From an uncultured candidatus Porisulfidus sp. (GTDB lineage: Bacteria > Pseudomonadota > Gammaproteobacteria > Poriferisulfidales > Poriferisulfidaceae), in assembly GCA_965116025.1 (NCBI GenBank), contig OZ220480.1:1824001-1888000 (forward strand): a stretch of 64,000 bases of DNA, in the 5' to 3' direction. The position numbers and the translations under genes are program-made. The notes below the pieces were generated by a model. It ran no database searches. It worked only from the letters and a program-made list of their open reading frames with translations, and was not told the DNA's origin. Shown in pieces: positions 9,008 through 64,000 of the stretch. Position 1 is the first letter of the stretch; each line of letters opens with the position of its first letter.

Positions 9008-9243
9008 GGCCCGGAACGGTTCCCGCGAGGCGGATCGATAGGTCGGATTTTACAGGACCGCGCGGAAGCGAGATCCCAGTTTCAACTTTCAAGTGCAACA
9101 GCATTGTAACCCGGTGGAGAGCGGCGAGAGCGGCAGGATGACGAAGAGGATCGGGGGAAGGCGGCGAGGGTCGGTCGCCGGACGGGAAGAACGGCAGGAT
9201 GGGGGAGAGGGTCGGGGGAAGCCGGCGACAGTCGGCCGCGTTC

Positions 9244-9273
9244 CGTCCGGGGAAGGCCGGCCTTCCCCGGACG
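9244..9273. repeat. Perfect 30-bp palindrome in the IS30 3' non-coding region (strong hairpin)
   Basis: cgtccggggaaggccggccttccccggacg is its own reverse complement; it lies 32 bp past the transposase stop. Confidence 0.9.
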
Positions 9274-9305
9274 AATCATCGCCGCGCCAACCTGCCCCCT
9301 CGAAT

Positions 9306-10304
9306 TTACAAAAGCCGGGACATCTCCTCTCGCCAGGCCCGAACCACCTCCGAATCCGCTCCGAAAAACGCCTCGTTCGGCGTGCGCCATCCCAAGCGGC
9401 GCCGAGGCCGGTTGTTCAGGCGGTCCTCCACCGCCCGCGCCTCCTCCTCCGAGATCGTGTCGAACCGCCGCGACTTCGGGAAATACTGCCGGATCAGCCC
9501 ATTCGCGTTCTCGTTGCTCCCGCGCTGCCAAGAGGAATACGGATCCGCGAAGTAAAACTCCGCGCCCAGGAGGCGCGCCACCCGCCGGTGATCCGCGAAC
9601 TCGGTTCCATTGTCCGAGGTCAAGGTCAGAACCCGGTCCTTCAACGGCGCCAGCATGCCGATGATCGCGTCCGCCACCGCGCGCGCCGAGCGCCGGGGCA
9701 ACCGCTTGAAACGCACCAGCCGCGACTTGCGCTCGAGCAGCGACGCCAGAACCCCGCTGCCCCGCCGTCCGATCACCGTGTCCGCTTCCCAGTCTCCCAG
9801 CCGCGAGCGCGTCTCCACCACCTCCGGACGCTCCTGGATCGGCACCCGCCCCGGAATGCGCGACCGGCCCTTCCCGCGCCCATACCGCCGGCGCCGACGG
9901 TGGCCTTGCCGCAAATACAGATACAGGTCGCCGCCCCGCCGCCGATCCGCCCATACCCAGCGGTAGATGAGCTCGTGGCTCACCTTCGCCAAGCCCTCCT
10001 TGTCCAGCCACGCGCTGATCTGCTGCGGGCTCCAGCCCTGCTTCAGCAGCTTCTTGACCCGCCTCCACACCGCCGGCGAGACCCGCCGCCGAGCCCGCTT
10101 CTGGCGGCGCTCTTTCGCCTTTCGGCACGCCAGCTCGGCCCGGTATCGTCCGCTCCGAGCGTCGGCGTTCCGCTTCAGCTCGCGGCACACCGTGCCGCGG
10201 TCGACGCCGATCCTTCGCGCCACCTCCGCCTGGCTCATGTCGAGGCCCCGCAGCGCCTCGATCTGGTAACGTTGGGTCTCGGTGAGTTGCGTGTAACTTC
10301 TCAT
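9306..10304 (-). CDS. IS30-family DDE transposase
   Basis: N-terminal HTH (YTQLTETQRYQIE), GDWEADTV, TSDNGTEF, PYSSWQRGSNENANGLIRQYFPK, LNNRPRRRLGWRTP. Confidence 0.97.
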   Translation of the reverse strand: MRSYTQLTETQRYQIEALRGLDMSQAEVARRIGVDRGTVCRELKRNADARSGRYRAELACRKAKERRQKRARRRVSPAVWRRVKKLLKQGWSPQQISAWLDKEGLAKVSHELIYRWVWADRRRGGDLYLYLRQGHRRRRRYGRGKGRSRIPGRVPIQERPEVVETRSRLGDWEADTVIGRRGSGVLASLLERKSRLVRFKRLPRRSARAVADAIIGMLAPLKDRVLTLTSDNGTEFADHRRVARLLGAEFYFADPYSSWQRGSNENANGLIRQYFPKSRRFDTISEEEARAVEDRLNNRPRRRLGWRTPNEAFFGADSEVVRAWREEMSRLL

Positions 10305-10561
10305 AAGCGCCTCTCTCGGGGGCGGTTTTTGACAATGAGACCTTACCGCGACTCATCGCCTCCACCGCCATTCTTCGGAGTGTTGCACTTGAAAGTTGAA
10401 ACTGGGGATGTTATATTTTTCCAGAATGAGGCGAATCGGATCTGGATCAATGACGTTTCTCTCTCGCCAACGTCAATCGCTTTTTCCTTCGGAGCTCCAG
10501 CAATCTGGAAATCGCCATAACGGACAGGATAACCCATGAAACGAAGAGTTTCCGATCTTCC

Positions 10562-10735
10562 TCACTCATCCTCTTCCTCAATCATGTCTTGATAATCCAG
10601 GTATCCGGCGACGATCCACGCGAGAACCGTAGACGCATAGAGAGTCAAGACGACCATGGCCGCCTCCGGGTAATATTCCAGAAGCAACAGGGGTGGCAAG
10701 GCGAAAGCGCATGCGAGCAATATCAGATAGCGCAT
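10562..10735 (-). CDS. Small 57-aa membrane protein (below the ORF-track cutoff)
   Basis: Hand translation MRYLILLACAFALPPLLLLEYYPEAAMVVLTLYASTVLAWIVAGYLDYQDMIEEEDE*; GGAGG (10744-10748) 8 nt before the ATG; two hydrophobic segments and an acidic tail. Confidence 0.7.
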   Translation of the reverse strand: MRYLILLACAFALPPLLLLEYYPEAAMVVLTLYASTVLAWIVAGYLDYQDMIEEEDE

Positions 10736-11071
10736 AGTTCATACCTCCATGCGGTGGTTATTCAAGGATTGAGGACCAAGAAGCCGTTCTTCGAAGTGAA
10801 AAGCTTGAAATGCGCGCCTGCCGGAGGCGGAAACGATGCCACGATAAGCCCTTCCAGCCATGCAGGCGATATCAACTGATCGGTGGTTTTGAATAATGGT
10901 TCAGACTTCGTGAGCTGGAAACCTCCCGGCTGATTTCCTCGCTCATGCCTCGGGAGGATTCTCAAGGCGCGCCAGCCCGGAATTCCAGATTAGCGAAGCG
11001 TTCAAGGATTCGTAATTTCACTGGTATATGCGACGTTCTTCCATAAAGCAATCTTTTTTGAGTGCACAAGC

Positions 11072-11100
11072 ATTTTACCAAATGCGCTTTCATTTGTCAA
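11072..11100 (-). promoter_or_regulatory. Near-consensus sigma70 promoter with an overlapping palindrome
   Basis: Minus strand TTGACA-17 bp-TAAAAT with TG extension; CAAATG-N6-CATTTG inverted repeat across the spacer. Confidence 0.75.
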
Positions 11101-11593
11101 GTCCTCTTACGCGTCGGAAATCTCTTTTGCTCGGCCCGAATCCCTTGGAGCATGAAAGATCGGATGACGCAAGCGGGCACTTCTGGAGTGGCTAATTAAA
11201 GCCTGACGAAACGGCGCTCTGGCATCGTGCTTCTTGGGTTCGCCACGCATGTCCACCCATGCTCTTGATTTGGGCGTTTGGACATGAGAGATGGTCTTGA
11301 CTGATCTCCCATAACCCCCGACGGCTGTTCTCGGACACCGCCTCCGTGTTGGCTTGACAGTGGACGTTGGCCTATTTCAACCAAAGCGAACTGAATATTG
11401 TGGAGATACATGCAAGGAAGCGCTGGTAACGCGTTTCCGAAGCGAATCCCGCGACTGGTCAAGACGAGAGAGCGTCCTCTTGATCCGAGCGTGACCAGCG
11501 AACCCCCGCGCGAGCACGAGCTTTCAGCAGGAAAAACCTTCGAAAGGCTTGATTTCGGATGGAACGATCATGTCGCATCTTCGCATCTCGCGC

Positions 11594-14500
11594 TCACCAT
11601 TGGAAGGAGGCGCGCAGGGCGATCCGGCTCTCGTCGCCGGTCTCCGCCTCCAGCGCCAGCGCCAGCGTCTCGCCACGGCGGTAGCGCGTCCCCAATCGCA
11701 GCAGCGCCAACCCGGACTCCTCCACCGACAGCCCCGCGTACGGCGTCGCCAGCCCCGCCCACGGCCCCGACAGCCCCTGACCCACCTCCGCCTCCAGCCG
11801 CGTCCGCGCCTCCGCCTCCCCCAGCCTCGCCGACGACCCCTCCCGCGCGAACAGCCGCGCCAGCCCGCTCCCCGCGTCGCCCCGACCCAGCGACAGCCGC
11901 AGCGACGGACCCCGACCGCTCGCCTCCGGCGTCACCGACATCCGCGCGCTCGCGCTCCACTCGTCGCGATCCGCCTCGTGCGCCACCAGCGCCCGCGTCC
12001 GAAACTCCACCGACATCCGGCCCGTCCCATCCAAGTACGACACGCTCGCCCCCAGCTCCGCCCCCGCCCCGTCCGTCGCGTCGCCCCCGTCGTAGCGCGC
12101 CCCCGCCTCCAGCGCCGGCGTCAGCCTGCCCCCGTCCTCCAACATCCGCTCCCGCGACCCCTCCAGCGCCAGCCGAACGCGGCTCGCGTCCACCGACAGC
12201 CCCTCCAGCCCGTCCTCCGCGTCCGTCCGCGCCCGCGCCAGCGAGCTCTCCCCCCGCAGCGCCAATCGCAGAACGTCTCCTCCCGCGCCCGAGCGCTCCG
12301 ACAGCGTCCGCCAGCCCCCCGCCGACGCGCTCCGCGTCCGCAAGTCCGCCTCCCGCGTCGCCTGACCGTCCTCCCGCACCCGAACCTTCCCGCGCCCGTA
12401 GCTCGCGCTCGCCCACAAGCTCGACCCGTCCTCCAAAAGCCACGCCACATACGGGCGCACCGACGCCAGCCGCGTCTCGTGCCGCCCCCGAACCCCGTCC
12501 GCCTCCGTGTCCAGATCGCCCTCCGCGTAGGACGCCGCCACCCCCGCCAGAACGTCCGGGCGCGCCCGGAAGTCCACCCCGGCGTGCGCCGACCACACCT
12601 CCCCGTCCCAGGACACCCCGTCCTCCGACCCGTCCAGCGACGACAGCGCCCCGCGAACCCAGACCGACGCCACCCGGCTCCCGTCCGCCCCGGTCAATCC
12701 CGTCGCCAGCGCCGTCCCGGACAACGCCGCCCGCCAGTCCAGCCCGTCCGCGCCCGCCCCCGACGCCAGCGCCGCGCCCAGGTCCAGCGCCTCCGGCTCC
12801 ACCCCCGACGCCGCGAGCTCGATCCGCCGCGCGATCACCCCGGTCGCCTGCGCCACCGCCGCCGCCAGCGCCTGCGGCAGCGCCGCCGCGTTCACCCGGC
12901 TCGCCCGCTCCGCCGCCCCCAGCCGGTCGCTCACTATCCCGTCCGCCAGAGCGTCCGCCCCCACCGCGTAGCCCGTCCCCGCCAGCAGCTCGACCCGGTA
13001 CGCCTCCTCCCCCTCCGACCCCTGATCCCCTGCCGTCGGGATCAGCACGATCCCCGCCATCCCCGCCTCCGCCCCGAAGTCCGCCTGGAAGTCCCGCGGG
13101 CCCAGCCCGCCCTCGATGTCCTCCGCGTCGAAGCCGCTCTCCTCCCGCGCCGATAAATTCAGGCGAACCGTCAGCATGCCCGTCACCGCCTTGTCCGACG
13201 CCACCGTCAGCCGGATCGCCTCCCCCTCCGCCGTCACCGACGGGTCCGCCGATAATTGCAGGATCGGCGTCGTCTCCGACACCGACACCGACACGTCCGA
13301 CAGCGTCGCGTCGTCGTAGCCCCCGCCCGCGGTCGCGTGCGTCAGCGTCACCGCCGCCTCCGCCTCCGCGTCCTCGTCCGCCGCCGCCGACACCGTCACC
13401 GTCACCGGAACGTTCCAAGTCGCCGTCGTGAACGTCAGGCTCGATGGCGCCGCCGACACGTCCCCCGACGCCCCGCCCACCGTCACCGTCACGCTCGCCG
13501 ACGGCTTCGTGTGCAGAACCACCGTGTACGAGCCGCTCCCGCCCTCCACGACCGTCAGCTCCGTCGGCGCCACCGTCCCCCCCGGATCGTCCTCCTTCAC
13601 CGACACCTCCACCGTCCCGACCGACACCGAGCCGTAGCCCCTGCTCGTCGCCACATGCGTCAGCCGCGTCGGCGGGTCCGTCATCGTGTCGTCGTTCTCC
13701 TCCACCGCCTCCACCGTCACCGTCTGGGCCGTCGACCAGTCCGCCGTCGTGAACGTCAGACTCGACGGCGTCGCCGTCACCTCCGCCGTCGTCCCGCCCA
13801 CCGACACCGTCACCGCCGCCAACGGCTTCGAGCTCAGAACCACCGTGTACGAGCCGCTATCCCCCTCCTCCAGCTCCAGCTCCATCGGCTTGAGGGTCAC
13901 TCCCGGCAGCGGCATCGGCGTCGCCTTCACCTGGTCCGACCACGACGACTGCACCCCGGGACGGACCGCGGCGAACAGGCGAAACGTGTATTTCGTGCCG
14001 TTCGTCAAACCCGTCACCTTGACGCTCGTCCGGCTCCCGCCCGTGAGCGTCGTGGTCGTGCTCCAGCCGCCCGAACTCTTGTACTGGTAACCCCAGCTCG
14101 TTATCGGAATGCCCGACAAGGCGTTCCAGCTCAGGGTGGCCGAGGCGTCGCTCCCCGCCGCCGTCAGAACCGGCTTGGGAACAGTATTCGTCGGCGTCGC
14201 CTTCACCTGGTCCGACCACACCGACTGCGCGCCGCTGCCGGTGCGGGCGAACAGGCGGAACGTGTATTTCGTGCCGACCGTCAGACCCGACACCCTGACG
14301 CTCGTCACGCTCCCGCCCGTGATCGTCGTGGTCCTGCTCCAGGAGCCGCCATCCGGCTTGTACTGGTAGCCCCAGATCGCGACCGTCACGCCCGACAAGG
14401 CGCTCCAGCTCAGGGTGACCGAGGCGTAACCCGCTTCGGCGCTCAGCTCCGGCTTGGGAACCGCCGCCGACGCCGACGGCGTCGCCTCCACCACCGCCGA

Positions 14501-15377
14501 CTGCCGCCCGTTGCCGCCACTGTTCCGCGCCCGAATGCGGAAGCGGTACTCCACATCGTTGTCCAGACCCGTCACCGTGTGCCGCACGGTGGCCGCGCCC
14601 GAACCGGAAATGGCGGTCCAGCCGCCCCAGGCGGCGCCGCCCTTCTTCTGCCGCAGCTGATACCGCGTGATCGAATCGTCGTCTGGATCGGTCCACGACA
14701 GCGTCACCCGCGCGTCGCCCGCCTCCGCCAACAACCCCGTCGGCGCCGCGGGTTTGGCGGCGCTGTCGTCGTCGTCCACGATGGTCAGGGTGAGCCTGCC
14801 GGAGGTCCAGCCGGTCTCGTAACCAAGCAGCTTGATGGTCTCGTTCGGCTCGTCCCGCGCGTCGCCGAGGATACGCACTTTCATCGTGCCCTGGGTCTCG
14901 CCTTCGGCGATCGAGACCGTGACGCTGGCCGGATAGCACCAGTCGGTATCCGCCGGGATCAGCGGCGCCGCGCAGGGGTCGCGCCCCTTGCTGGAGCCCT
15001 TGGCCGTGCCAGAGGGGAAGTCAGAAGTAACGGTAATCGAAAAGCCCGCCGGCGCCGCCTCGCCGAGCGTGACGGTGACCGTCACGTCCGTCGAGCCGGT
15101 ATCCCCCTCGGTGATCGAGGTCGACGACGCCGAAAGGGTGATGGTTTTGGCGGCGCGGGCGTTTTCGGGCGCGGCGAGCGCCACCAGCGCGAAGAAGACG
15201 CAGGCGAGTCCCGCCGTCAGGCGGCGGGCGACTCTCCCGAGGCCACCCACAGCCTCAGCCCCGCCCCCATATGAGGGGGGGGGGGGGGGGGGGGGCGATA
15301 AGCGAAGCCGGCGCGCTAACGGCGCTTCCCCGCGACGAGGTTCCGGCGGCGCGCCATCCATTCGTCATCATGCTCAT
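11594..15377 (-). CDS. Modular autotransporter adhesin (Calx-beta, 3x FN3, 2x Ig-like, Calx-beta-like, beta-barrel) with a poly-C tract in the leader
   Basis: The 1255-aa ORF is 11594..15361; SD-led ATGs at 15377/15371/15368 are in another frame. Signal-peptide-like LACVFFALVALAAPENARA, DARDEPNETI Calx-beta motif, FN3 motifs (VTLSW, GLTNGTKYTFRL), barrel ending RASFQW. Confidence 0.9.
13280..13900 (-). repeat. Two tandem Ig-like module repeats, 321-bp period
   Basis: cagaaccaccgtgtacgagccgct at 13514 and 13835; cgccgtcgtgaacgtcag at 13421 and 13742. Confidence 0.85.
13915..14460 (-). repeat. Two closely related tandem FN3 modules, ~276-bp period
   Basis: tcggcgtcgccttcacctggtccgaccac at 13915 and 14191; similarity continues through KYTFRLFA and WGYQYK. 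Confidence 0.9.
15275..15295. repeat. G21/C21 homopolymer (candidate slipped-strand phase-variation tract)
   Basis: 21 consecutive G on the + strand; the only long homopolymer seen in the window. Confidence 0.9.
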
Positions 15378-15435
15378 GGCTCCCTGTTCGTCATTGACTT
15401 CCGGCGCCAAACGCCAGCGGCGGTCTCGCCGGCGA

Positions 15436-15444
15436 ATTGTAGCA
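15436..15444 (-). promoter_or_regulatory. Extended -10 element for the autotransporter
   Basis: TGcTACAAT on the minus strand about 60 nt upstream of the SD-led ATG. Confidence 0.5.
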
Positions 15445-15541
15445 GAATAAGCATACTCACCATCTACTAGCGATCTCGCGCCCAGCCAGCTCCTAGAAAA
15501 AACAGATAGACGAATGGCCTCTCCGGGGCTGGACGAAATCC

Positions 15542-15568
15542 TTGAAACTGGCCCCTCCTTGCTAAAAT
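15542..15568 (+). promoter_or_regulatory. Putative promoter of the orf20-orf19-orf22 cluster
   Basis: TTGAAA-15 bp-TAAAAT with TG extension (TGcTAAAAT), 19 nt upstream of ATG 15588. Confidence 0.45.
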
Positions 15569-15587
15569 TTTGATCGGACTCTCGTTC

Positions 15588-17000
15588 ATGACCGAAAAAA
15601 TCCTGTTTCTGACCGGGCGGCTCGCCGAGCGTAGCCTGAATCGCGTGTTGGAAACCATGCAACCAACGGATTTCGCGTATGAGGTTCGCCAACTCGGCGC
15701 GAGCGTAGCCGCGCTGATGACTCCCAAGCTGATCGAGAAGCGCCTTGATCTACCGCCAGACATCGACCGCGTCATGCTTCCCGGACGGATGCGGGGGGAT
15801 CTGGAAGCGCTGGAAGCCAAGTTTGGAGTTCCATTCGAACGTGGACCTGACGAGCTCAAGGATCTGCCGACTCACTTCGGCCGGGTCACGACGGAGGAAG
15901 ACCTGTCTCGATACGACGTCCAGATCTTCGCTGAAATCACCGAGGCGCCCAACCTCAGCATGGACGCCATCCTGGCCCAAGCCCGCCACTATCAGGAGGA
16001 GGGCGCCGACATCATCGATATCGGTTGCTTGCCAGGAATCGAATTTCCGCACTTGGCCGATACCGTGAAAACGTTGAAGCGGGAAGACTTTTTGGTTAGC
16101 GTGGATTCGCTGGAGACGGAAAACCTGATTCTTGGTGGACAAGCCGGAGCGGATTTCCTTCTCAGTCTGCAGTCGGACAGTCTATGGGTCGCTGACGAGG
16201 TCGATTCCATTCCCGTGCTCATCGGAAACAGCAATACGGATCTCGAGTCGCTCTGCGCGTGCGTCGATCATTTCCTAGAGAAGGACCGACCTTTCATCGC
16301 CGATCCGATCCTAGACCCCATTCACTTCGGATGCGCCGATTCGATCGCTCGTTATGTCGAGCTTCGCCGCCGCTATCCGGACATTGAGATCCTGATGGGA
16401 GTCGGCAACCTGACCGAGCTGACTCACGCGGACACGGCCGGCATGAACGCTTTGCTGTTCGGACTGATTTCCGAGCTGAGCATCCGATACACCCTGACCA
16501 CGCAGGTCAGCGAGCATTGCCGCACGTCATTGCGCGAAGCGGACCGCGCCCGAAGAATCATGCGGGTGGCGGCCAAGCACGGAATCCCCCCAAAAGGCAT
16601 AGACGACCAGTTGATGATGCTGCACGAGCGACACCCTTATCCGTACAACCCGGAGGAGATCGCCGAGTTCGCCGCTCAGGTCAAAGACCGGAATTTCCGG
16701 ATCCGAGTCGCCGAGGACGGCGTTCACTTGTACAATCGGGATGGGGAGATCGTTCATACGGACCCGCTCGATTTTTACGAGGACTTGGACTTGGACGACG
16801 ACCCCGGCCACCTGTACTATTTGGGCATCGAGCTGACGCGAGCCCAAATCGCGTGGCAACTCGGGAAACGCTACGAGCAAGACGAAGAGTTCCTCTGGGG
16901 GTGCGCCGTGCGGGCGTCTTCCAAAGATTTGTCAGAATTTCGGGGAGTCGGCCCGACTCGCCAAAAGCGCAAGGAAAAAATGAAACACCGGAAATCCTGA
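15588..17000 (+). CDS. Dihydropteroate-synthase-like pterin-binding protein of H4MPT biosynthesis (Orf20-type, DUF6513 N-terminus)
   Basis: ILFLTGRLAE, GADIIDIGC, SVDS, DPILDPIHFG, MGVGNLTELT, HLYYLGIEL...YEQDE. Confidence 0.85.
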   Translation: MTEKILFLTGRLAERSLNRVLETMQPTDFAYEVRQLGASVAALMTPKLIEKRLDLPPDIDRVMLPGRMRGDLEALEAKFGVPFERGPDELKDLPTHFGRVTTEEDLSRYDVQIFAEITEAPNLSMDAILAQARHYQEEGADIIDIGCLPGIEFPHLADTVKTLKREDFLVSVDSLETENLILGGQAGADFLLSLQSDSLWVADEVDSIPVLIGNSNTDLESLCACVDHFLEKDRPFIADPILDPIHFGCADSIARYVELRRRYPDIEILMGVGNLTELTHADTAGMNALLFGLISELSIRYTLTTQVSEHCRTSLREADRARRIMRVAAKHGIPPKGIDDQLMMLHERHPYPYNPEEIAEFAAQVKDRNFRIRVAEDGVHLYNRDGEIVHTDPLDFYEDLDLDDDPGHLYYLGIELTRAQIAWQLGKRYEQDEEFLWGCAVRASSKDLSEFRGVGPTRQKRKEKMKHRKS

Positions 17001-61009: not shown

Positions 61010-64000
61010 TCAGAAGCGAACTTTCAGCAGGACGCTCGCGCCGTAATCATGATTGTCGCCGTCCGACGCCACGTAGTGAGCGTCCCCCGAGAGCGTCGAC
61101 TCTCCCTTCTCATTCAACACCATCACACCCCCGACGCCCAAACGCGCCCACGTGGACTCCGCCTCCGAGCGCAAGCGCGACCCCGACGCCATCGCCTCCC
61201 GGCTCTCCGAGAGCTCGCGCTCCACGTCCAATGAGGCGTACGTCTGACCGTTCTCCAATAACGCCCCGATCCGCGCCCTCACGCTGTCCTCCGAGCGGAA
61301 CGACACTCTTCCGCTTCCAGTAACGCCCGACACGTCGGCGAAGCCGTCGACGTCCACCCAGGTCCACGTCAATCCCCCGCGCGGAACCAGCGCGAAGCCG
61401 TCCATCTCCATGCGCCTGCCGACCTCCACGCCGATCGCGTGGCCCTCGCCGTCCAGACCGGACGCCACCATCCCACGCGCCTCTGAACTCAAATCAATGT
61501 CCTCGAAACGCGTGTACGAGAGCTCCCCGTCCGCGTACCAGCCATCCTCACCCCGCCAGGTCGCCGAAGCCCCGACGCCCACGCCCGAGACCTCGATCTT
61601 CCCGCCGCGCGCGACGTCCGCCTCGCCGTCACGGTAGTGCGCGCTCGCGCCCAGCGTCAGCCCTGGCGCGTCCGTGGGAACGACCAAGCCCGTCTCCACG
61701 CCCCAGCGCTCGAAGTCCCAAGACAAATCATGCCCGGCCGTGTCCATCGCGGTCGTGGACATATCCGCCTCGCGCTCGCCGTCGCTCGCCATGACCCGCG
61801 CCCAAACGCCCCCGCCGTCCCGCGTCGCTGACAACCGCGCCTGACGACCGCCCGGCGCGCTCATCTCCAGCAGCACCGACGGCAGCGCCTCGTACACCCT
61901 AGCTCGGGCGTGATACGCCCGACCCGACTCCTCGAACTGATGCCCGCCCTCGATCATCTTCAGGGTGACTCTGGAGACGTCGTACACGCCGCGCGTCTCG
62001 AGACCCGGACTGAGCGTGTATTCCCCGCCCACCTTCACCCCATCGAAGGTCGTCGTTCCGCTGTTGAGCATCTTCCCCTTGACGTAGCCAATGCGTCCGA
62101 CCGCGTCCTTCTTCATGGTGATGGTCAGCCCCCCGTCCGACTTCACCGCGGTTCCAGACGCAGCCTCGACTTTCGCCTTCGGCCCGATCACCAGCGTTCC
62201 GCCATTCACCATCCGAACGCCGGCGCGCTCGCCGGCGCCGCCCATCACCTTGCCGTTGATGGTGACCGTCTGGTCGTATTGCCCCGCCCGGGCGTGGCTG
62301 GCGACGAACGTCCGCTTGCCCTTGACGTGAACGCCGTCCTTCTTGGCCCGGATCGTCGCCATCTCTCCCACCGTGACCTCAATCTTCCCGGCTTTCGGCG
62401 CGTCCTCGTCCTCGTAGACGGTGGCGGTCTCCGCGTGCACGCCATGCCCGTCCGCCATGATCGTCCCGCCAGCCACGTCGATCATGATCGGGATGATCGT
62501 CTCAATGTCCCGTATCCCCGCCGTGTCCTCCAGATCCTTGACATAAGCGAGAATTCCGTCGCCCTTCGACGTGATGTCCGCTTTCGACGTGATCTCGATC
62601 TTCCCGATCTTGGCCTCGTAGGTGGAGGGGGCTTGAGAGTCGACCGCCGTCTCGTCGGAAGCCGCCTGGGGCTCCGAGCCCCCATGAATGGCGAGAATGC
62701 CGGCGGTCCGGGGCTTCAGGCCCGCCAACTCCGTCTGGTGATCCTCCGTGAGCGCGGAGAAGGCGTTGGGCTGGTCGCCCGCGACTATCTCTCCCGCTAG
62801 ATGCTTCGCGACCACGTCGCCCTGGCTGATATGCAAAGCGACCACCCCCGACCCCTTCGCGTGGATGAGACCCTCGTTGGTGACCATGAGATCAATCTCG
62901 TTATCCGCGTCTTCGGTCTCGACGAACACGCCGCTCTCGCCGACCGGCGTCTCCGCGGTCCCGATCCGCGCGCCGGACACCACGGCCACCCGGGTCGTTC
63001 CCTCAGTGACTTGGTTGCGAACGTACACGCCATGGCCGCCAGCCTGAGCGATCACGCCCGCCAGGTCGATTTCGATATCGCCGCCCGCATGATTGGAATA
63101 AACATCGATCCCGTGAAGATCCTCCGCCTTGATCGTCCCCCCGGTCACCTTGACCGCGACCGGAACCACCGAATCGTCGTCCCCTCGCGTGTCGATGTGA
63201 ATGCCACTCCTGCGGGCGTCGATGTCGCCGCTTGAGGTGATCATGATCGTGCTGCTGGGATTATCGGCGGCGCCCTCGGTCGTATCCGTGTGGTTGACGA
63301 TTATGCCGTCTGAGTTGAAGAGACTGAGATCATCGTTATACAGCGTGGCCTTTCCGCCCGAGAGCGTTTTCGCGTACAGCGGCCGTTGCCTCAGGCTCCG
63401 GATCGTCCCGTGGTTCGTGACGGTGATATCGCCCCCCTTGGAGAGATGGACCACCACGCCCTTGCTGGTCACGCTCCCCTTCGCCGTTTCGACGGCGATG
63501 TCTCCAGAACCTTGATTAAGTACCTGAATTCCCCGGTAATACCCGTAGATCTCGCCCCGGTTCACGATCGAGACAGCGCCCTCGGCGGAAGAACTGCTGT
63601 AATACGCGAAGACGCCGGTCCGGCCCACCGGAACGTCCTCGGTTCCGATCCTCGTCTCGGCCCCAATCACGACCTCGATCTTGTCCTCCCTGTTGACATT
63701 GCCGGCTCTGTCGTTCTGGACGAAGACCCCGAAGTTCTGACTGCCCCGCCGATACTGGGGAGCGATGAAAGTCGCGGTTTCCTCCGTTCCACCGTTATCG
63801 AATGTGGCTTCGGTGGGCGAAGTCCAGTCACCGGCCTCGTTCACGATCCTCACCTTGCCTTCCAGCTTGACCGCCAGCGTTCCGCGGCCGACCACTTTGA
63901 TCCCGTTATACCGAGTGTTAGCGTCAGGGGGAAGGAACGACTTGATGGTCGTCATCTCCCCGGAAGGCTTCACGGTCAGCGTCAAGCCCCTCGTCTGACC
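61010..64000 (-). CDS. Autotransporter outer-membrane protein (5'-partial; begins beyond the window)
   Basis: Frame is open to the window end. Gly/Ile/Thr-rich beta-helix-like passenger repeats, linker ARVYEALP, barrel with VWARV and WYADG, C-terminal LKVRF. Confidence 0.9.
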   Translation of the reverse strand, partial: GQTRGLTLTVKPSGEMTTIKSFLPPDANTRYNGIKVVGRGTLAVKLEGKVRIVNEAGDWTSPTEATFDNGGTEETATFIAPQYRRGSQNFGVFVQNDRAGNVNREDKIEVVIGAETRIGTEDVPVGRTGVFAYYSSSSAEGAVSIVNRGEIYGYYRGIQVLNQGSGDIAVETAKGSVTSKGVVVHLSKGGDITVTNHGTIRSLRQRPLYAKTLSGGKATLYNDDLSLFNSDGIIVNHTDTTEGAADNPSSTIMITSSGDIDARRSGIHIDTRGDDDSVVPVAVKVTGGTIKAEDLHGIDVYSNHAGGDIEIDLAGVIAQAGGHGVYVRNQVTEGTTRVAVVSGARIGTAETPVGESGVFVETEDADNEIDLMVTNEGLIHAKGSGVVALHISQGDVVAKHLAGEIVAGDQPNAFSALTEDHQTELAGLKPRTAGILAIHGGSEPQAASDETAVDSQAPSTYEAKIGKIEITSKADITSKGDGILAYVKDLEDTAGIRDIETIIPIMIDVAGGTIMADGHGVHAETATVYEDEDAPKAGKIEVTVGEMATIRAKKDGVHVKGKRTFVASHARAGQYDQTVTINGKVMGGAGERAGVRMVNGGTLVIGPKAKVEAASGTAVKSDGGLTITMKKDAVGRIGYVKGKMLNSGTTTFDGVKVGGEYTLSPGLETRGVYDVSRVTLKMIEGGHQFEESGRAYHARARVYEALPSVLLEMSAPGGRQARLSATRDGGGVWARVMASDGEREADMSTTAMDTAGHDLSWDFERWGVETGLVVPTDAPGLTLGASAHYRDGEADVARGGKIEVSGVGVGASATWRGEDGWYADGELSYTRFEDIDLSSEARGMVASGLDGEGHAIGVEVGRRMEMDGFALVPRGGLTWTWVDVDGFADVSGVTGSGRVSFRSEDSVRARIGALLENGQTYASLDVERELSESREAMASGSRLRSEAESTWARLGVGGVMVLNEKGESTLSGDAHYVASDGDNHDYGASVLLKVRF

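Follow-up and report, generated by a model that had tools for sequence, protein, structure and literature searches.

A 21-cytosine tract in the leader of an autotransporter gene as a probable slipped-strand switch in an uncultured Candidatus Porisulfidus bacterium

The 64,000-nucleotide stretch analysed here (positions 1,824,001 to 1,888,000 of contig OZ220480.1, hereafter the window) comes from an uncultured Candidatus Porisulfidus species and carries, on its minus strand, an autotransporter gene with an uninterrupted run of 21 cytosines (C21) in its 5' leader. Judging from sequence comparison, this run is probably a slipped-strand phase-variation locus that was assembled in the OFF state. 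The initial annotation had proposed such a contingency locus, and the proposal is supported by an in-frame paralog at genome position 1154002, by homologous leaders, by the gene context of similar runs and by the intact gene bodies. The OFF assignment holds on condition that the assembled length is exactly 21 and that the ATGs upstream of the tract serve as the start.

In the mechanism that we propose, C21 would be a slippage-prone homopolymer near the 5' end of the coding sequence of a type Va autotransporter gene, situated between a cluster of ATGs served by a Shine-Dalgarno (SD) site, of which ATG 15371 is the most likely start, and a putative Sec-type signal peptide. Replication slippage would add or remove cytosines and thereby shift the signal peptide and the protein in or out of the start frame, so that each cell lineage would either make the surface protein or not. 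At 21 C the start frame would halt at the TGA at 15257-15255 (OFF), while lengths of 20 or 23 would be ON. The 45 runs across the genome would act in this way on 30 autotransporter genes, on several restriction-modification and defence genes, and on genes for glycosyltransferases and secretion. The proposal presumes frequent changes of tract length within the population, initiation of translation at the upstream ATGs and a lack of the protein whenever the locus is OFF.

Structure of the C21 leader

The leader has the following elements, in window coordinates:

15436-15444, minus strand: extended -10-like motif TGCTACAAT, read from the sequence; the block of homology with paralog 1154002 begins here
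15380-15385, minus strand: SD site AGGGAG, 8 nucleotides (nt) ahead of ATG 15371; paralog 1154002 has AGGAAG at the equivalent place
15296-15377, minus strand: pre-tract leader frame MSMMTNGWRAAGTSSRGSAVSAPASLIA, with ATGs at 15377, 15371 and 15368, open as far as the tract
15359-15361, minus strand: in-frame ATG without a usable SD site, which opens the longest open reading frame (ORF) reported by the caller; not conserved in the paralogs
15275-15295, minus strand: C21 homopolymer (G21 on the plus strand), uninterrupted
15255-15257, minus strand: TGA closing the upstream frame at C21, part of a TGA-N4-GTG arrangement
15248-15250, minus strand: in-frame GTG at the head of the signal peptide, an alternative start, with GAGG only 2 nt ahead
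15152-15250, minus strand: signal-peptide-like segment GGLGRVARRLTAGLACVFFALVALAAPENARA, basic and then hydrophobic, ending in ARA|A, judged by eye from the translation

The SD site, the three ATGs, the tract and the stop at 15255 are all where the initial annotation had placed them on the minus strand. The three ATGs share one frame and lie 2, 8 and 11 nt from AGGGAG (15377, 15371 and 15368, respectively), and the 3' end of the 16S ribosomal RNA (rRNA) of the organism reads CACCTCCTTT. At C21 the upstream frame reads ...IAPPPPPPLIWGRG and terminates at the TGA 17 nt past the tract. Its offset from the main frame is one base (15371 - 15361 = 10); therefore one C fewer or two more (C20 or C23) joins the upstream ATGs to the protein, in agreement with the earlier statement that a loss of one C or a gain of two fuses the frames. 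The 1255-residue autotransporter ORF (11594-15361) opens at ATG 15361 and translates the tract as seven prolines; this ATG lies 18 nt from AGGGAG and, as had been noted, has no SD site at normal spacing. Paralog 1154002 has the leader start ATGAGCATGATGACG in common with the C21 locus, and in the paralog it continues in frame into the protein.

The run is thus longer than the approximately seven uninterrupted bases that characterise homopolymers undergoing slipped-strand phase variation, and its place between an SD-served ATG and the protein body is that of a translational switch, provided that this putative start is the one used. The promoter is less clear. The extended -10 described in the initial annotation is present as the motif TGCTACAAT at 15444-15436, but the consensus promoter scan found no site with a full -35/-10 promoter. 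An Rfam search over window positions 15000-15700 returned no matches at E≤1.

Paralogous leaders in both states

The ORFs downstream of each long run in the genome were clustered into a family of 24, a family of six that includes the C21 gene, and 15 singletons. All six genes of the smaller family carry poly-C on the sense strand, and homologous leaders with other tract lengths occur in both states. Paralog 1154002, which matches the C21 gene over the stretch between the -10 motif and the tract (82.6% over 149 nt), also has 21 C. It reads MSMMTDEF...SLAPPPPPPLY... into the signal peptide and a 1541-codon open frame, and is in frame. The C21 gene has one extra base past the tract relative to this paralog, and hence is out of frame. 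Paralog 385736 (C18) is in frame from an SD site and ATG of its own (MTTVLATW...), while its near-twin 1747365 (C19) is out of frame. In paralog 1986077 (C18) the upstream frame is open and matches that of the protein, but its start is ambiguous, and the giant paralog 137569 (C29), with an open frame of 9644 residues, has its own AGGAA and ATG downstream of the run. In this family two genes are clearly ON and two clearly OFF, and the state of the other two is ambiguous.

Paralogous leader pairs with flanks at least 90% identical (80/120-nt flanks) differ in tract length in three of three cases (17/20, 18/19 and 23/27). This supports the view that tract length changes faster than its flanks. 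With 200-nt flanks, no paralog pairs reach 90%.

The 24 genes of the larger family have poly-G leaders with a different layout: an SD site and ATG, 60-78 nt of coding sequence (MTKNLSVFEIRAALRGASSSSRI and variants), a run of G16-G27, and then the hydrophobic part of a signal peptide (HSLRFLTVLAGLTAV...). Here the tract splits the basic from the hydrophobic part of the signal peptide, and no start codon is available after it. Four of the 24 are in frame and 20 are out, with a split over the three frames of 4:9:11. The shortage of ON genes was considered as a sign of selection and rejected because it is not significant (chi-square p=0.20; the probability of four or fewer of 24 is 0.059). One naturally in-frame member encodes 1186 residues, with an Autotransporter beta-domain (88.6 bits) as its sole Pfam match. 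One out-of-frame member crosses the right edge of the window:

61010-64000, minus strand: autotransporter of the 24-gene family with a beta-domain hit, out of frame; its G23 tract lies at genome 1888175-1888197, 175 bases outside the window

The gene bodies past the tracts are intact. In the 24-gene family, 1036-1166 codons remain open past the tract in 23 genes and 889 in one; 1226 remain open downstream of C21; and out-of-frame members of both families keep about 1000-2300. Decaying pseudogenes would not keep such long open frames. This bears on the idea that the C21 gene is itself a decaying pseudogene and its run a functionless mutational scar. The gene is out of frame from its SD-served start and sits in a 6.5-kb insert adjoining a multi-copy element, as might be expected of a decaying gene. 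With the long open frames on record, and with runs that are pure and occupy the same leader position in 30 genes, we regard a pseudogene as extremely improbable.

Another possibility is that slippage occurs at the level of expression. RNA polymerase slippage or ribosomal frameshifting on the run would yield mixed-frame products and reduced expression whatever the DNA length, so that the state of the DNA would hardly count. That polymerase slips on long homopolymers is well established, and runs of 15-39 nt exceed the length of the RNA-DNA hybrid. The runs in this genome are also far longer than the 6-15 nt of proven DNA-level switches, and intact genes occur in all three frames. However, both off frames meet early stops directly past the tract, which would be pointless if the frame were corrected anyway, and such slippage is compatible with DNA-level switching in any case. 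As a replacement for DNA-level switching it appears very unlikely. Slipped-strand length change between the start and the signal peptide is the simplest account for all 30 leaders.

A genome-wide set of long G/C runs

The genome that contains the window is a single contig of 2,018,984 base pairs (bp) with a guanine-plus-cytosine (GC) content of 62.7%. Its C or G runs otherwise reach a maximum of 8 nt; none has a length of 9-14, and 45 have lengths of 15-39. A composition model expects 81 runs of at least 9 nt, 0.078 of at least 15 and 7e-5 of at least 21, so that chance does not account for C21. The absence of runs of 9-14 next to 45 runs of 15-39 therefore indicates that middle lengths have been purged and very long ones kept. 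Fifteen nucleotides is the shortest pure G run that is able to fold into a three-layer G-quadruplex. The shortest long run in this genome is also 15, while homologous leaders in other genomes do carry C9-C13.

Thirty of the 32 Autotransporter beta-domain hits of the genome sit behind a run of 15 or more in a 5' leader. The initial annotation had proposed a survey of other autotransporter leaders for similar tracts, with mention of the gene at the right edge; such tracts are present in nearly every case, that gene included. The two run-less hits are at 508180 and, weakly, at 1557986. The former (genome 508180-508875; 107.9 bits, in an 880-residue frame) is the sole strong hit without a preceding long run and may be a truncated or run-less copy.

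The 15 singleton runs adjoin a variety of genes. Three of them split genes: one for a Type ISP restriction-modification enzyme (244 + 843 residues), an Eco57I-like one (864 + 304) and one for an N6_Mtase (567 + 212). One lies inside the frame of an N6_N4 methylase, one ahead of a DUF499 protein and one between a BglII-type endonuclease gene and a PAPS-reductase-like gene; another is at an ABC-transporter/HlyD junction. The two longest runs, C30 (genome 90005-90034) and C39 (97045-97083), are near residue 296, towards the 3' ends, of two paralogous GT2 glycosyltransferase genes. Two runs occupy promoter spacers: TTGACA-a-G20-TATAAT (772596-772615) ahead of a GmrSD-type restriction gene, and TTGACA-G15-TATACT (789208-789222) ahead of an RTX-repeat protein. 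The remaining four adjoin genes without a clear assignment. Most of the runs outside autotransporter genes fall in gene classes that are phase-variable in known pathogens.

A change in length of C30 or C39 would swap the C-terminal tail of the glycosyltransferase rather than switch the gene off. Each of these two runs is followed, on the opposite strand, by a TATA-like hexamer.

Leaders and runs in other genomes

Outside this genome, 23 homologous leaders have a nearly fixed layout: an SD site, ATGACGCGG..., an open frame of 84, 90 or 96 nt, a run of C9-C33, TCAAGAGTCAGGGCGCGGGGCTGAGCCGGTGGGC... and a signal peptide. The three pre-tract lengths differ by in-frame insertions or deletions (indels). 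Five of these leaders are in frame, 17 are out of frame and one has no recognisable ATG. Relatives of the protein occur in metagenome-assembled genomes (MAGs) labelled Alphaproteobacteria, Binatia, Vicinamibacteria and others, with best segments up to 82-83% identical, while the 16S rRNA of four such genomes is 78.4-83.3% identical to that of this one.

Long runs are also common closer to this organism. Runs of 15 G or more were found in 11 of 15 other genomes of the genus and in nine of 12 genomes of a sister family, and in none of 12 genomes of a family with genomes of about 1 Mb. In the relatives, long G runs are often at contig ends. One complete genome of the genus has 12 runs of 16-30 nt, located ahead of signal-peptide-like proteins and a DPPF methylase, with one inside an fn3 protein.

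The leader DNA of the 24-gene family has 24 copies in this genome and gave no match at E≤1e-5 in any of the 15 other genus genomes. Metagenome scans with a flank-gap-flank pattern gave no hits for this family and none for the C21 locus.

A second, conserved class of tract was seen in five of the external loci (L021, L032, L038, L043 and L054), downstream of the autotransporter match. It reads GTGTTGACTTCA-[C11-C15]-GGTATTG(T/G)CAAGG and, by its sequence, looks like a promoter with a run in its spacer.

Translation start, tract length and points against switching

Several observations weigh against the proposal that C21 is a phase-variation locus. The length of a 21-nt homopolymer is error-prone in any assembly. 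A 27.5-kb Logan contig of sequencing run X1 crosses the tract without a gap at exactly 21 C, which speaks for a dominant length and not for variation; this sequencing run may be the assembly's own source, so that the contig is perhaps not independent of it. Only one pair of external leaders has flanks at least 90% alike, an exact duplicate inside one genome, and its tracts are equal (C13 and C13). The absence of a significant ON shortage in the 24-gene family belongs here too. MutS and MutL are intact (frames of 871 and 583 residues), which rules out loss of mismatch repair as the cause, so slippage would have to occur unaided; to our knowledge, Campylobacter, by comparison, lacks both proteins. 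Finally, a main-frame GTG lies 4 nt past the off-frame TGA, so that some translation in the OFF state is possible, and the pre-tract peptide has 13, 10 and 6 variable sites at the three codon positions (32 columns each, 12 distinct sequences), with no constraint at the protein level. Without a codon-position signature, the case for the pre-tract segment being coding therefore comes solely from the SD site and ATG, its openness and the in-frame indels.

In a second sequencing run, X2, none of the Logan contigs bridges the tract: one ends at 15257, and another starts at the tract with 4 loose letters.

The first of these points raises the question of whether the assembled length is wrong or irrelevant. 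The true length might be 20 or 23, or ATG 15361 might be used, and the gene would then be a constitutive, intact autotransporter with a polyproline stretch. Homopolymers of about 21 nt are miscalled on all platforms, and the longest ORF, from ATG 15361, is intact across the tract. Still, the contig of X1 reproduces the 21, with the reservation about its independence just made, and ATG 15361, which has no SD site, falls within the footprint of the SD-served ATG, 10 nt in, and has no counterpart in the paralogs. In addition, a length error at one tract would leave 45 tracts in contingency-type genes unexplained. A constitutive gene is therefore highly improbable.

The GTG at 15250 suggests a different role for the tract. 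Translation of the autotransporter might begin past the tract at this codon, with the pre-tract frame as a short upstream ORF and the tract tuning expression by coupling or occlusion. Tract length would then decide where the ribosome stops: in a fused product, at the TGA 4 nt ahead of the GTG (the case at C21), or at another TGA some 40 nt farther along. Read from the GTG, the protein opens with what looks like a complete, ordinary signal peptide. The arrangement of an off-frame TGA, four nucleotides and a main-frame GTG recurs in 28 of 31 homologous leaders, including those in which the encoded amino acids have changed; as the 31 are related sequences, this count is descriptive, and the conservation may reflect mere descent or a termination-restart site. 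The missing codon-position signature before the tract and the AGGAA and ATG after the tract in giant paralog 137569 also fit a downstream start. On the other side, GAGG only 2 nt ahead of the GTG is poorly spaced, and paralog 1154002, which has GCG at the site of the GTG, is still intact and in frame from its upstream ATG. The pre-tract indels are in-frame, and the 24-gene family has no post-tract start, so that a translational switch is the simpler common mechanism. We consider a start at the GTG unlikely, and prefer phase variation from the upstream ATGs.

Relation to known systems

Most documented cases of homopolymer phase variation come from pathogens and commensals of vertebrates. In a literature search over titles and the openings of abstracts, no paper describing it in sponge or marine symbionts was found. 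In Neisseria, pilC carries a poly-G tract in the part encoding the signal peptide, and opa genes carry CTCTT repeats in their leader-coding part, with each paralog switched independently. The leaders described here are similar in having the repeat within the leader or signal-peptide coding part. They differ from opa, where the repeat is a pentamer in 11-12 small genes, in being homopolymers of 16-29 nt in 30 genes of 3-29 kb. The G20 and G15 promoter-spacer runs resemble those of Bordetella fim and meningococcal porA and opc, which have homopolymers in their promoter spacers, whereas C21 lies downstream of an SD site and ATG. The gene classes of the singleton runs carry repeats in the Neisseria phasome too.

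The mechanism itself is already known from two autotransporters of Neisseria meningitidis, NalP (AspA) and MspA (AusI), in which poly-C tracts of 6-15 bp within the gene act as the switch (PMC3723659). By immunoblot, NalP is ON at every third length, with 7, 10 and 13 C. C21 shares with them the cytosine repeat, its place within the coding sequence and the type Va class of the autotransporter. The tracts are longer here (21, and 15-39 genome-wide) and more numerous, with 30 genes in an uncultured bacterium against two such genes per meningococcus in a human host. The tract here is in an N-terminal extension ahead of the signal peptide, which is a further difference from NalP and MspA.

The Campylobacter phasome offers a parallel in scale. 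Like this genome, it combines many intragenic and intergenic G/C homopolymers in a small genome with surface-structure, autotransporter and methyltransferase genes, and the classes of the singleton genes found here carry repeats there as well (PMC6321876). The median C. jejuni genome has 20 tracts, and the lengths listed are 7-13; the 45 tracts of 15-39 found here are about twice that number and far longer. In Bartonella badE, mononucleotide repeats in the first part of an adhesin frame changed length repeatedly over host passage (PMC11466379). The badE product is a trimeric (type Vc) adhesin and its repeats are short, and switching is experimental there, while for C21 it is deduced.

What is new is thus the organism, the tract lengths of 15-39, the scale (45 loci, and 30 of 32 autotransporter hits) and the sharing of switch-bearing leaders among distant genomes. 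Tracts that gate nearly every autotransporter gene, along with restriction-modification genes, point to strong and fluctuating selection at the cell surface, which might come from host recognition or uptake, or from phages. ORF calling by the longest frame would start the C21 gene at an unlikely ATG and split other tract-bearing genes, and short-read MAGs break at long runs, as the tracts at contig ends illustrate. A system of this kind is therefore easily missed.

The autotransporter protein and its insert

The gene and its surroundings comprise the following features, in window coordinates:

11594-15151, minus strand: mature autotransporter coding region with passenger, barrel and stop (ORF list and translation)
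13931-14746, minus strand: three fibronectin type III domains of the passenger (Pfam fn3, 94.1 bits, three stretches, residues about 206-477)
12056-12664, minus strand: Autotransporter beta-domain (Pfam PF03797, 33.3 bits against a cut-off of 26, residues 900-1102), recovered at the same place in a second profile search
9066-10408, unstranded: multi-copy 1.34-kb element, with five near-full copies (96-99% identity) and fragments elsewhere in the genome

The C-terminal beta-barrel that defines type Va autotransporters is thus present. The initial annotation had described an FN3/Calx-beta adhesin; the three fn3 stretches and the beta-domain were recovered, but Calx-beta had no Pfam match, either at E≤0.01 over the whole protein or at E≤1 over residues 70-205 and 490-900. 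No extended signal peptide region of autotransporters (ESPR) was found, either in the C21-locus protein at E≤0.01 or, with the limit at E≤1, in the N-terminal 200 residues of the paralog that is naturally in frame.

An insert of about 6.5 kb (window about 9010-15560) separates recJ from a pterin-binding (DUF6513) gene, and contains the 1.34-kb element, a low-GC spacer and the autotransporter gene. The two flanking genes are abutting divergent neighbours in at least 10 of 14 loci from the same genus. A 1.4-kb query from the locus matched 14 of the 15 other genus genomes by the upstream neighbour gene only, with no orthologue of the autotransporter gene. Beside that neighbour gene, 13 of the 14 loci have neither an autotransporter nor a run of at least 8 nt; the remaining one (L072) has two G12 runs. 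GC content varies along the insert from 51% at 10400-11400 to as much as 77% across the barrel, and is 72.7% for the autotransporter gene against 62.7% for the genome. The barrel is 97-98% identical to those of three paralogs, and 90% identical to that of 1747365 in a partial alignment; identity to external homologs is about 50% for most and about 30% for three. Together with the position of the insert and the passenger segments up to 82-83% identical in distant genomes, a GC content 10 points above that of the genome suggests that switch-bearing adhesin genes are mobile between lineages.

The gene is a mosaic. From the -10 motif to the run (15301-15448), it resembles paralog 1154002 (82.6%), while from the run onward it resembles paralog 1986077 (88% in DNA; 91% in the leader and 90% in the passenger at the protein level), the upstream part of which is unrelated. 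As the closest paralogs differ on either side of the run (window 15058-15448 compared), recombination breakpoints seem to lie near it. We infer that this mosaic is foreign in origin and was later homogenised within the genome.

It is tempting to go further and to regard the leaders as portable modules, each with a promoter -10, SD site, ATG, short peptide, tract and signal peptide, which would pass by recombination, with breaks close to the tract, between co-resident bacteria whose 16S rRNA is only 78-83% identical. The poly-C family would then act as a three-position dial, in which the leader may be fused to the protein, or ribosomes may stop at the conserved TGA 4 nt before the GTG and could restart there, or they may read across the GTG. 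This extended scheme is speculative and unlikely as a whole. If it were true, a genome of 2 Mb would display random combinations and levels of 30 autotransporters, beside randomly switched restriction-modification genes.

The 429-residue ORF of the 1.34-kb element has no Pfam match, and the element is probably an insertion sequence of an unrecognised family. Several copies of it adjoin other tract-bearing genes, for example directly upstream of the in-frame autotransporter gene at genome position 1471950.

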